Positions 53,739-56,850 of a stretch of DNA of 64,000 nt are shown in pieces. Below the pieces are notes generated by a model, which was not told the origin of the DNA, did not search any database, and was given only the letters and a program-made list of their open reading frames with translations. The position numbers and the translations under genes are program-made. The stretch's first letter is position 1. Each line of letters opens with the position of its first letter. Source of the stretch: Cyanobacteria bacterium J069 (GTDB lineage: Bacteria > Cyanobacteriota > Cyanobacteriia > Elainellales > Elainellaceae); NCBI GenBank assembly GCA_003695655.1, contig RFIF01000414.1, positions 4,551-68,550 on the forward strand. Reading direction: 5' to 3'.

Positions 53739-54348
53739 AACAACCTCACACCAACGGAGACAGATACTTCAGGATTAACTCAGGTGAAATCAGTTTGGGA
53801 CGGGTCTTTCAGGCTTATTTTAGGCTTAAATATTGGCAAATCTCGAATATCGAAAAATTCGCCCCAAAAACAGCCGCTACGATTCTTTACAGAAGGGTAT
53901 CACGGAATGCCGAGCTGGAAGAGTATGCTCAATGTTTGAGCCAGATTTTTGATGAATTTCCGGGTTCATGACGCCGTATTCACCATCCAGCAGCCAGGCG
54001 AAAACCGCTAGACAAAGCCGTTTGATCTTCGGCTCTGCATCTCTGTAAAGTTTCGATGAACTCGCAAAACACCGTCTTTTCTCACCTAGACCGACGCCAC
54101 CAGTCGATTAGTTCCTGGCTTGTTCAATATCTGGCGATCGCCCCCAAAAACCTTGCGCTGGACAAACGCTTGAGCCACAATATCGCGCCAATAGTGTGCC
54201 ATTGCTCTTGCCAACCCCTGCCCTGACCCACTGCCAGATCTGGACTGTCTTAAAGTGTTGCTGGTTGTAGAACCGCCTTAACACCTGCTTTGCATCTTTC
54301 GGGCGTCCCCATTTTCGGGTTTCCCTCAACAGACAACTGAGAAAACAA

Positions 54349-54398
54349 TGATAGAAATAACTAAGGGTTCATCTGATAGAAATAACTAAGGGTTCATC
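54349..54398. repeat. Perfect 25-nt tandem duplication downstream of the HNH gene
   Basis: TGATAGAAATAACTAAGGGTTCATC x2. Confidence 0.9.
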
Positions 54399-54412
54399 AC
54401 TTAAGAGTTCTT

Positions 54413-54865
54413 TTAAGGGTTCTTTAAAGATTTCAAGAGCTTCATCGGGCGCGCTGCTTTGATCCCCGACAGGCGATCGGGATGATGTTTCATCATATAG
54501 TGCTCATACTCAAACCAATGCATCTCGCCCTTTTCATCATTACAAGCTTTACAAATTACCCAGAAATTATCAAAGTTCATAGATAGCCAGGGATATTGCG
54601 ATCGCGGCAATTTGTGATCGATTGTTCTACCGCCACACTCAGAGAACCTAACGCCACAGATCGGGCAGTGGAAATCTGAGTTATCCCTCGCCCAATCTCG
54701 GCTTTCTTGAGTTGTGCCGCAATCATGTTCACCATTGACATAGCGCCAGTGGTTAAACTTTTCATAATCTTCGAGGTCTTGGCGCGTCAGCTTGTGATAA
54801 CGCTGCTTTCCAATTTTGTCTGCCAATGCAAACAGTTCAGGCAGTCGTTTGCCGTCAAGATTCAC
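54413..54865 (-). CDS. HNH endonuclease with Zn-binding CxxC pairs
   Basis: CPIC...TIDHKLPRSQYP...NFWVICKACNDEKG; GTG start preceded by AGGAG. Confidence 0.9.
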   Translation of the reverse strand: MNLDGKRLPELFALADKIGKQRYHKLTRQDLEDYEKFNHWRYVNGEHDCGTTQESRDWARDNSDFHCPICGVRFSECGGRTIDHKLPRSQYPWLSMNFDNFWVICKACNDEKGEMHWFEYEHYMMKHHPDRLSGIKAARPMKLLKSLKNP

Positions 54866-54950
54866 TGTTAGCTCCTGTCTATTTAGATCTGTCTATTTGA
54901 ATCTGATTAAGTCTGAAAAATTTGCCGATCCAGCCGATTTTATTTGAAAT

Positions 54951-55364
54951 CTATTTAGACCGTTTACGAGTCGGCTTTTTGACAGCACTACCAAAATCAA
55001 TCACTTCGATTTCTGTATCTGGAAACTGCTGATCAATTAGCTCTCCAATCTCGGCAACCTCCTGAGACATCTTCCGGTTAAATTCCTCAATCTCTTCAGC
55101 AGAGAGGTATTTATTTCCAATGCGATCAGCTTCTAGAAATAGCTCCTCTAAACTCATGTCTTTGAACTGAGCTTTGTCCAAAAAATCCTCAATTTTTTGA
55201 TACAGGCGAATCACATTATCCCAGCCAACATTCCGATAGCCATTCTCCTTTAGCCAGTTTTGCTCTTCTTGAGTAATTTTTTTTCGATTATCAGAATTGG
55301 CACGCTGCACCTGGACGTAGCCCATTCCGTTAAATTTTTTCGCCTGCCTGGAGTTCTGCCCCAT
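54951..55364 (-). CDS. Hypothetical protein, middle gene of the HNH operon
   Basis: 137-aa ORF 15 nt downstream of the coiled-coil gene; no recognised family. Confidence 0.8.
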   Translation of the reverse strand: MGQNSRQAKKFNGMGYVQVQRANSDNRKKITQEEQNWLKENGYRNVGWDNVIRLYQKIEDFLDKAQFKDMSLEELFLEADRIGNKYLSAEEIEEFNRKMSQEVAEIGELIDQQFPDTEIEVIDFGSAVKKPTRKRSK

Positions 55365-55379
55365 GTTCTCTCAAGCCCC

Positions 55380-56006
55380 CTATCCTAAAGTCCACCTAAA
55401 CAAACGAATCACCGCTTTACGGAGTTCACTATCTTCATATTGCAGCAGCACTTTGGTATCCTCAGCCAGTCTCAGTCGAATCTGATCGACGATATTTTTA
55501 AGGTCTTTGTTTTCTTTTTTAAGCTGTGCATTTACATCTGTTAGCTCGGTATTTTGGTTAGCTAAATCTTGCACCTTGGAAGACAAAGCCTGATTGTTTT
55601 GGGATAGGCTTTTTAACTCAGACTCTAGTTTGAGCTGCTCTTCCTCAAGGGCTTTCTTTTTCTGCTCCAGCGTTTGCTTGCCGACTTCTAAGGTTCTTTT
55701 TTTCTGTTCTAGTGCTTGCTTATCTGCTTCAAGATCTTTAATCGACTGCGCTAGCTGGGTATATTCAGTTTTTAAGGTTTCGAGTTTGCGCTCTGCCTGA
55801 CTGCGAAGCTGACCATAGTGGGCATTATTCCTTCCCAGGCTGGCATTTTTTTTGGCAAACGAATCGACAAGTCTGGCGGCGGAGTGGTCTTGCTGAAGGA
55901 GCGCCAGGATATTCTCACAATCCTCGCGGGTTAGCGATTCTGTGATGTTTTTATTGATACCAAGTTTTTCTTTCAGGATAGTTTGCAGTTCACCCTTAGA
56001 CACCAT
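55380..56006 (-). CDS. Coiled-coil hypothetical protein, first gene of the HNH operon
   Basis: Long heptad stretch including LEADKQALEQKKRT/LEVGKQTLEQKKKA; small globular ends. Confidence 0.82.
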   Translation of the reverse strand: MVSKGELQTILKEKLGINKNITESLTREDCENILALLQQDHSAARLVDSFAKKNASLGRNNAHYGQLRSQAERKLETLKTEYTQLAQSIKDLEADKQALEQKKRTLEVGKQTLEQKKKALEEEQLKLESELKSLSQNNQALSSKVQDLANQNTELTDVNAQLKKENKDLKNIVDQIRLRLAEDTKVLLQYEDSELRKAVIRLFRWTLG

Positions 56007-56060
56007 TGGTTACTCTCTTAATACTGGTTATTCTCTTAATACTGGTTATTCTCTTAGTGT
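56007..56060. repeat. 18-nt tandem repeat x3 abutting the operon start codon
   Basis: TGGTTACTCTCTTAATAC / TGGTTATTCTCTTAATAC / TGGTTATTCTCTTAGTGT. Confidence 0.85.
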
Positions 56061-56452
56061 CGATTGCTCTTAATACTAGTTGCCATTGAATTAATTACCA
56101 TTGATACTGATCATTCTCTTGGTTACGCCTTCAAGTGATGACGCTGATAACGCTCTTAATTTTTGATTTGGTTGCGCCTTAATTTGGTCGCGCGCTTTGG
56201 CTTAATAATCATCGAGAACATGAGGCAGCCTATGCGATCGCCCTCTGTGGTGCCGAGGAATAGTTCAGTGCCTGAGCGTAACCCTATTTTGCCCAGACCA
56301 GGTCTGAGCAAGATAGCTTTCAAGAACTTTTGTATCTTTACTATTCCGACTCTGGCATCAAAAAACCGCCAGCTTTTCACAAAAGTTAGTCTATTTCTAA
56401 CGGATTTGAAGATTTCTGGCTACTTTTCCCAATTCAGACTTTGCACCAGTTG

Positions 56453-56499
56453 CAGGTTTGGCAACCAGCAGGTTTGGCAACCAACAGGTTTGGCAACCA
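56453..56499. repeat. Tandem repeat x3 with a 16-nt period
   Basis: CAGGTTTGGCAACCA at 56453, 56469 and 56485. Confidence 0.85.
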
Positions 56500-56850
56500 A
56501 TGTAGAAAACTCTGAAGGTCGCGGTTAGTCAGTTTCTGGCTGCGCTTTGCCTGAAAATATAGACCAGGTTTTGCCCATGCCGTAGCGAATCACACTGCAC
56601 AAACGCCCGCCTGTACCAGTACAATTCAATCTATTCGCTAGATTTATGCTGCGAAGCAGGGCGATCGCCTGGTGTTTGCTTTCGAGCTGACGCTTGGTGT
56701 AAGGTCACGGACGTCAGTTCACGTCAGTCCCCAGGTTCACGTCGGTGCACCATCAGTTCATTCAGGCAGTTTATTTAGAAGTGGCTCCCAAGCCGCAGCC
56801 AAACTAGCCAAATCTATTTCTTTGCTCAGATCGATTAGGAAGAACTCCCA

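Follow-up and report, generated by a model that had tools for sequence, protein, structure and literature searches.

Why should two neighbouring proteins that otherwise look unrelated carry the same short segment? The question is raised by three tightly packed minus-strand genes in a 64,000-nucleotide stretch of Cyanobacteria bacterium J069 (contig RFIF01000414.1, positions 4,551 to 68,550; hereafter the window, whose first letter is position 1). In their order of reading they encode a coiled-coil protein (CC), a middle protein (MID) and an HNH nuclease (HNH), and together we call them the cassette. A first-pass annotation of this DNA had noticed a 12-residue motif common to MID and HNH. It proposed a docking helix that binds the coiled-coil partner or mediates heterodimerisation, with MID as a possible decoy or partner switch controlling release of the nuclease. 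We find that a conserved helix-loop-helix module, about 31-34 residues long, has this motif as its core. The genes and the two copies of the module lie as follows (aa, amino acids; ORF, open reading frame):

55380-56006, minus strand: CC, gene 1, coiled-coil protein of 208 aa (ORF call)
54951-55364, minus strand: MID, gene 2, middle protein of 137 aa, no named family (ORF and homologue set)
54413-54865, minus strand: HNH nuclease, gene 3, 150 aa, GTG start with AGGAG ahead of it (Pfam PF01844)
55080-55172, minus strand: shared module in MID, residues 65-95, consisting of helix, G-x-K-Y loop and helix, with the motif at residues 72-83 (BLASTP, conservation, hhalign)
54764-54865, minus strand: shared module at the N-terminus of HNH, residues 1-34 (BLASTP, conservation, hhalign)

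The two forms of the motif, LEELFLEADRIG in MID (residues 72-83, nucleotides 55151-55116) and LPELFALADKIG in HNH (residues 8-19, nucleotides 54844-54809), agree at 8 of 12 positions with an R/K pair in addition, and both the residues and the coordinates first reported are correct. In 1000 composition-preserving shuffles of both proteins a 12-residue window with 8 identities never occurred (0/1000); the maximum was 7, reached in 9 of the 1000. BLASTP aligns MID and HNH with 11 identities in 27 positions and one gap of three residues (E-value 0.007), and the weaker similarity that had been seen behind the motif (LSAEEIEEF in MID, LTRQDLEDY in HNH) falls inside this alignment. On the DNA level only 19 of the 36 positions of the motif stretch are identical, therefore the likeness is held at the protein level and is not that of a DNA repeat.

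Conservation of the motif in both families had been named beforehand as the check, and we scored it on 120 homologues each of MID and HNH. The motif is nearly invariant in both. In MID the residues L72, L75, F76, G83 and Y86 are present in all 120 homologues, A79 in 119, D80 in 117 and I82 in 111, and in HNH the residues F12, G19 and T27 are present in all 120, L11, A15, Y23 and L26 in 119, L8 in 117 and D16 in 102. When the two family alignments are compared by hhalign a single match appears, between MID 65-95 and HNH 1-34 (31 columns, E 3.8e-6, probability 87%), and with alignments taken from 14 independent loci the profile match has an E-value of 2.9e-5. Apart from this region the two proteins are indeed unrelated: a second BLASTP segment (MID 10-41 with HNH 36-62), which would speak for a circular permutation, has no support from the profiles (E 0.2), and this idea was rejected. 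Chance or compositional likeness of two helical segments could be argued from the shortness of the segment and from the single-pair BLASTP E-value of just 0.007. It is refuted by the shuffles, by the conservation within the families, by the profile E-values in two cassette types and by a profile of mini-proteins which finds both proteins (the last two are described below), and we give it practically no weight.

The module can be written as h-E-D-x-x-L-x-E-L-F-x-x-A-D-+-I-G-x-K-(x)-Y-(xx)-L-T-x-x-[ED]-h-x-[DE]-[FY], where h is a hydrophobic and + a basic residue. As a sequence pattern it can be read as an amphipathic first helix closed by a Gly C-cap, then a Tyr anchor, then a second helix opened by a Thr/Glu N-cap box. 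The loop of HNH (GKKRYHKLT) is three residues longer than that of MID (GNKY-LT). AlphaFold2 places helices, with moderate confidence, at the motif positions of both proteins, in MID at residues 72-85 and 89-113 (predicted local distance difference test, pLDDT, 62-74) and in HNH at residues 8-23 and 28-41 (pLDDT 60-79). The modules in MID and at the N-terminus of HNH are of common origin and under strong selection. The term docking helix has to be amended: the element behaves as a portable docking element, but a single helix is too small a description, because two helices and a loop form a hairpin, which in MID belongs to a larger unit of some 60 residues.

A hairpin of this shape might instead bind a small ligand or nucleic acid, as a degenerate calcium EF-hand or as a DNA hairpin of the HeH/SAP/Rho_N kind, gained independently by both proteins. 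An EF-hand on its own does not fold without a second hairpin, and paired EF-hands resemble the module in their two helices, in a loop of at least 12 residues that starts with Asp, and in the pairing logic which we propose for the module. Sub-threshold matches to EF-hand_10 are seen in 18 of 38 MID members (best E 0.0034) and to Rho_N in 3 of 28 modules (E 0.026 or worse). However, all of them stay below the Pfam cut-offs, EF-hand_10 reaching at best 17.8 bits against 27. In the loop of MID, D-R-I-G-N-K-Y-L-T-x-E-E, the third residue is Ile and the sixth Lys, and the loop of HNH is longer by three residues, therefore the calcium ligands are missing, and ligand positions 1, 3, 5 and 12 are not conserved as such. 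The module of MID is moreover strongly acidic and hence unsuited to DNA binding, and ligand binding would leave unexplained both the tails of the type B cassettes and the phage mini-proteins described below. We rejected membership in the EF-hand and in the HeH/SAP/Rho_N families and regard this explanation as very improbable.

The three genes belong together in other genomes as well. Among 401 cyanobacterial species genomes we found 14 strong MID matches, and in 14 of 14 loci CC, MID and HNH are present in the same order. Together with the conservation of the motif in both families this bears out the earlier proposal that the genes act as one system. CC is built of an N-terminal domain of the form 'YGINKNIS..EECE', a central coiled coil and a conserved C-terminal part of about 60 residues (LKNIVDQIRLRLA..LLQYEDSEIRKAVIRLFRWTLG). 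Across the 14 loci its N-terminal domain occurs in two unrelated forms or is missing and the C-terminal 60 residues or so are kept; the modules of MID and HNH remain constant while this N-terminal domain is swapped or lost. The forms are distributed over the loci (L001-L014) as follows: nine have 'YGINKNIS..EECE', four have a 'AIKLLEDEGWTKADAKRAL' form which looks UBA-like, and one is without the domain.

More divergent cassettes (type B, in distinction to the type A of the window) were reached via weak MID matches, and 30 more type B loci were found in Microcystis, Lyngbya, Okeania, Richelia and others. Between the two types the N-terminal domain of MID (E 1.4e-15, residues 9-72, by hhalign) and the core of HNH (E 8e-13) are related, whereas the first gene shows no detectable relationship (E 0.24). 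In type B, MID and HNH share an element at another place, the extreme C-terminal tail, with the pattern L-[AV]-[DE]-x-[AT]-L-x-[KR]-Y-x-x-L, and when the profiles of the two proteins are compared, their last 23 residues alone match significantly (E 1.9e-5). Similarity is higher between the two tails of one cassette than between tails taken from different cassettes (BLOSUM62 31.1 vs 25.6, 18 non-redundant cassettes, permutation p 0.00025, a value which overstates independence because the cassettes are related to one another). Pairs such as LTE/LTE, LVDE/LVDE and TAL..Y/TAL..Y are examples. Codon identity at the shared residues is barely raised (43% vs 34%), therefore selection at the protein level and not recent gene conversion is the main cause. 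With the low DNA identity of the motif stretch in the window this led us to reject a DNA repeat or recent gene conversion as the main cause of the likeness in general. In an Okeania/Trichodesmium subtype both tails have changed together, losing the terminal Leu-Leu and gaining a polar tail, and in both type B proteins the tails finish exactly three residues past the Tyr.

In the Okeania/Trichodesmium/Dapis subtype (L044, L046, L048, L049, L052, L053, L056) HNH starts within the end of MID in the +1 frame, and the tails read ..EHRYNEQSKT and ..FNRYPNANS. For a further group of three loci (type C) the best match between MID and HNH is again C-terminal (..K-x-K-Y), at an E-value of 0.24 that is not significant and too weak to count. 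In these loci (L015, L017, L018) all three cassette proteins finish in ..K-Y-x, and the third protein keeps DH..N..N and has lost all four zinc-ligand cysteines.

The distribution of the module outside the cassettes has to be read against the architecture of MID, which falls into two parts:

55155-55340, minus strand: N-domain of MID, three-helix bundle, about residues 9-70, common to all cassette types
54990-55178, minus strand: C-terminal unit of MID, residues 63-125, consisting of the module, a third helix and QQFPDTEIEVIDF; the unit borne by phages and mobile elements

In a tblastn search of GenBank phages with the module of MID an ORF of 57 aa (353-526) was found in Leptolyngbya phage Lbo402-yong5, a cultured and complete 49-kb tailed phage with an integrase. 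Its product comprises little beyond the module and matches both MID (E 3.6e-10) and HNH (E 2.5e-5) in hhalign. IMG/VR adds four contigs, which represent three distinct phages because two of the contigs are alike: one phage has an ORF of 44 aa beside methylase, tail and tape-measure genes, one a fusion of 121 aa with the module at its N-terminus, adjoining a minor head protein, and one a protein of 1939 aa which adjoins a tail-fibre gene and contains the entire C-terminal unit of MID (48 bits). All phage copies are of the MID type, with 27-50 bits to the MID profile and about 10 to that of HNH. They were found by module-level queries only; when whole MID, type B MID or P0385 served as the query, viral scans returned nothing.

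A profile of the C-terminal unit of MID finds 166 proteins at E<=0.001 among 1.84 billion representative proteins. In the best 150 of these 166 the N-domain of MID is present in 26 and absent in 124, and the latter comprise 82 proteins of less than 100 aa, 26 of 100-259 aa and 16 of 260-2420 aa. Most module copies are stand-alone proteins of 42-99 aa without a structural domain, and the mini-proteins with the module form about 80 clusters. The large carriers include four clusters of portal proteins and a 2420-aa N6-methylase/SNF2 helicase which resembles P1 DarB. Six clusters of 82-127 aa (P0313, P0342, P0298, P0368, P0372, P0385), which come from short contigs, are hybrids with a type A module at the N-terminus followed by the C-terminal half of a type B MID with the tail ..KY(P/Q)LL; in P0313 and P0342 each half reaches 30-34 bits to its profile. 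Thirteen metagenome loci contain three cassettes, seven stand-alone ORFs of 59-77 aa, which adjoin ParB-like and replication genes, and three large proteins of 626-681 aa, which adjoin an Ig-domain structural/major-tail gene. A profile made from the stand-alone mini-proteins alone also matches six N-termini of HNH in other genomes (E 3e-4 to 8e-4 per genome). In the 401 cyanobacterial genomes this profile finds no stand-alone copies, just the 14 MID genes and the six HNH N-termini.

In a group of 130-190 aa (P0289, P0319, P0324, P0365, P0295, P0316, P0357) a helical stretch comes after the module, together with segments that appear hydrophobic and by their sequence could be membrane anchors, and three members of the group open with a SAP/Rho_N-like 'LKDYCQENAI..GDKRK'.

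How is this module to be understood? We lean towards the view that it is a docking piece which couples MID to HNH. It would be a portable protein-protein element connecting MID to the nuclease, with MID as an adaptor or regulator composed of the conserved three-helix N-domain and the docking unit. Either the two hairpins, or the hairpin of HNH and MID, might pack into a shared helical bundle, as the helices of PtuB do with PtuA in Septu. The cassette would then be a candidate nuclease system against phages or mobile elements. The copies without the N-domain, be it mini-proteins of 44-90 aa, portal inserts or the DarB-like insert, would act as decoys that fill the docking site, so that the nuclease is uncoupled or silenced. 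The decoy idea of the first-pass annotation, which had been put forward for MID itself, suits the phage-borne copies better and MID less well. The copies in phages and mobile elements suggest an arms race by mimicry. Possible, though a good deal more doubtful than the coupling as such, is a wider form of this idea, a docking code together with its forgery. Each cassette type would have its own short element in adaptor and nuclease, and cyanophages and plasmid-like elements would carry forged copies of it as free mini-proteins, within portal or other injected virion proteins, or as hybrids of two types.

The phage copies might also be targets and not decoys. If like associates with like, MID and HNH of the host would be drawn to virion proteins and the nuclease would meet the phage DNA at ejection or packaging, and the four portal-protein clusters, the DarB-like giant and the 1939-aa protein beside a tail-fibre gene are where one would expect the module in such a case. 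But most copies are the small stand-alone proteins, some adjoin partition and replication genes, and the hybrids of type A and type B look designed for two host systems. A module that merely attracted a host nuclease should also vanish fast, yet it is diverse and widespread. Decoys are therefore rated above targets, and we judge the latter to be quite unlikely.

The coupling of MID to HNH was also approached by structure prediction. Two copies of CC 120-208, MID and, as the scored partner, HNH were co-folded in one job with three runs. The interaction prediction score from aligned errors (ipSAE) for docking of HNH had a median of 0.43 (runs 0.43, 0.00 and 0.74); the best control reached 0.01, and with MID swapped for an unrelated protein the score was 0.00. 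In the calibration the mark was reached in 58 of 80 solved complexes and in 2 of 110 mismatched pairs, and at scores of 0.60 or below by 7 of the 80 solved complexes and by both of the passing mismatches; our job used its own alignments and four chains, in which it differs from the calibration set. The runs agree in at least 0% of their contacts, and the partner has a pLDDT of at least 76. As a model, the co-fold gives weak support to a MID-dependent docking of HNH.

An alternative, and the main reading of the first-pass annotation, is a common receptor on CC. The modules of MID and HNH would dock at one site on the conserved C-terminal part of CC, side by side on the dimer or in competition as in a partner switch, and the phage copies would compete as well. 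The C-terminal 60 or so residues are the sole part of CC kept through the swap or loss of its N-terminal domain, the motif is invariant through these swaps, and the parallel changes of the type B tails and their fixed distance to the free C-terminus fit a shared pocket. On the other side, the CC proteins of types A and B are not detectably related, whereas the N-domains of their MID proteins are (E-values as given above). Therefore, if one conserved receptor exists, the N-domain of MID is the better candidate, and we count it as a further candidate receptor if the module couples MID to HNH. A common receptor on CC appears unlikely to us, though less so than the target function of the phage copies. 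CC itself was also considered as a third carrier of the module, and this was rejected: no segment of CC resembles the module when an N- or C-terminal copy is sought by hhalign (E 0.02-0.8).

Several observations weigh against our preferred view that the module couples MID to the nuclease and is mimicked by phages. The co-fold score does not place the interface at the module, and one of the three runs scored 0.00. Compared with the tail of type B, the module of type A gives an E-value of 0.3 (ADRIGNKYL vs ADQALDKYQ), so that homology of the two is not established, and the fixed end of the type B tails, judged from their sequences, looks better suited to recognition of a peptide in a pocket than to pairing of helices. 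Most of the mini-proteins come from short metagenomic contigs. Nuclease activity, toxicity and an anti-phage effect of the cassette are putative. Finally, genome G508 (L119, contig C1, about 1498-2723) contains a decayed cassette with a deletion that extends from the 3' end of CC into the module of MID. The tail of MID is left in another frame and the HNH gene of 152 aa is intact; MID is therefore not obviously an essential antidote, which warns against a simple toxin-antitoxin reading. A deletion of the same kind is seen in P0273, where the N-terminal part of the coiled-coil protein is joined in frame to the C-terminal half of MID. Because no such fusion is found in 301 genomes and G508 has a frame-shifted deletion of the same region, P0273 is probably a decay product, and we rejected it as a Rosetta-stone fusion and did not use it as evidence.

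A comparison with known systems starts from the nuclease:

54500-54679, minus strand: catalytic core of HNH, about residues 63-122, with zinc ligands C67/C70 and C105/C108, D83-H84, N100, N109 and H116

Among 120 of the 397 homologues of HNH the zinc ligands and the catalytic residues (including D83, H84, N100, N109 and H116) are invariant or nearly so. The protein is recognised by Pfam PF01844 over residues 67-113 (23.3 bits, cut-off 21.4) and stays below the cut-off of NCBIfam TIGR02646 (12.9 bits vs 52.15). Its beta-beta-alpha fold is similar to that of the HNH of Cas9, Cap5 and PtuB, and in PADLOC its core is nearest to the profiles PtuB (E 1.9e-10) and PDC-M01B (4.7e-12), which match over the core only.

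The nearest HNH systems with solved structures are Septu and retron Ec78, where PtuB contributes its helical C-terminal domain to a nine-helix bundle shared with helices of two PtuA copies (PMC12819146). The same shared-bundle logic is what we propose, by analogy, for the cassette: its HNH core is nearest to the PtuB type, and in the PtuAB pairs of Septu and retron Ec78/Eco7 a coiled-coil partner holds the nuclease via a helical appendage. The differences are considerable. The two upstream genes of the cassette are without an NTPase domain (Pfam, PADLOC, NCBIfam) and so provide no PtuA ATPase, the appendage is an N-terminal hairpin and not the C-terminal three-helix domain of PtuB, and a third small protein with the same appendage, as found here, has no counterpart in Septu.

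With toxin-antitoxin systems the cassette shares a small protein encoded upstream of a potentially toxic nuclease, and phages carry a cut-down copy of that part of the small protein which would bind the partner; the cassette differs in having three genes and in the HNH gene of G508 that is kept beside a deleted MID. To our knowledge a segment common to antitoxin and toxin is not a feature of toxin-antitoxin families. Antitoxin mimics encoded by phages are represented by Dmd of T4 and the pseudo-ToxI of PhiTE, and anti-restriction proteins packaged in the virion by DarB of P1 and IPI* of T4. Since one carrier of the module is the DarB-like methylase-helicase and others are portal proteins and a giant protein adjoining a tail-fibre gene, such proteins would deliver the module together with the DNA. 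The module has no relative in DarB or IPI*. Judged by its sequences the cassette appears to match no described system, and our literature search found no description of a CC-MID-HNH cassette.

The cassette is conserved in many cyanobacterial lineages, a group in which phage defence is little known. A shared, type-specific docking element offers handles for experiments, namely about eight residues for point mutants and a cultured phage with a candidate inhibitor of 57 aa, and the natural hybrid mini-proteins predict a specificity across types. If the mimicry were true, a defence family and a large and diverse family of small anti-defence proteins that mimic its motif would be added, and it would show how short interaction modules pass between host and phage proteins.

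For MID 559 homologues were found, mostly of about 146 aa and cyanobacterial wherever the source names an organism; none of them has a Pfam domain. The conservation of F11, N12 and G13, which precede M14, supports a start at the ATG at 55364. The AlphaFold2 monomer of MID has a mean pLDDT of 74.8, with values above 90 over residues 11-60 of the N-domain, whose predicted helices span residues 16-27, 32-40 and 48-68. Foldseek finds no match of the fold in the PDB at E<=0.001. In the VIA wide structure search the best match of the N-domain is not significant (Z score 5.4) and the matches are generic helical bundles; the epsilon antitoxin-like 1gvn_A (Z score 5.4, root-mean-square deviation 3.1, 57 residues aligned) is scored equally by unrelated helical bundles. 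The ESM Atlas returns unnamed cyanobacterial clusters only, and the sole match in PADLOC-DB 2.0 is AbiEi at E 0.006. For CC, Pfam, PADLOC and NCBIfam return coiled-coil noise only, with no NTPase domain among the matches, and neither for CC nor for MID is there anything informative in Pfam, PADLOC, PHROGs and NCBIfam. A group of MID-like proteins of 179-191 aa (L016, L025, also L065, L078) has the conserved N-domain followed by a Pro/Glu/Gln-rich repeat tail (PEQVPEQVPQQ...); in the stretch covered, no HNH gene is seen adjoining them.

In the window the cassette lies within an islet:

53775-56833, no strand: islet of low guanine-plus-cytosine (GC) content with the cassette inside, delimited by a drop in GC and a break of synteny

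The GC content of the islet is 0.40-0.48 and that of its flanks 0.55-0.62. In G017, a complete genome of the same genus, the likeness stops near 53774 and restarts near 56833. Neither MID nor the cassette is found in this genome, and an empty insertion site is not recoverable from it, the two flanks of the islet being 2.2 Mb apart there. The small ORFs which flank the cassette have no Pfam match, and a scan for promoters and terminators found no minus-strand sites above background. HIP1-like GCGATCGC sites are present within the islet. In addition there are several direct repeats: three tandem copies of 18 nucleotides immediately upstream of the CC start (56007-56060), three tandem copies of 16 nucleotides about 450 nucleotides farther upstream (56452-56499), two copies of 14 nucleotides in the gap between MID and HNH (54875-54902) and a perfect repeat of two times 25 nucleotides just 3' of HNH (54349-54398). 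The short tandem repeats which frame the operon could be operator or end sites.

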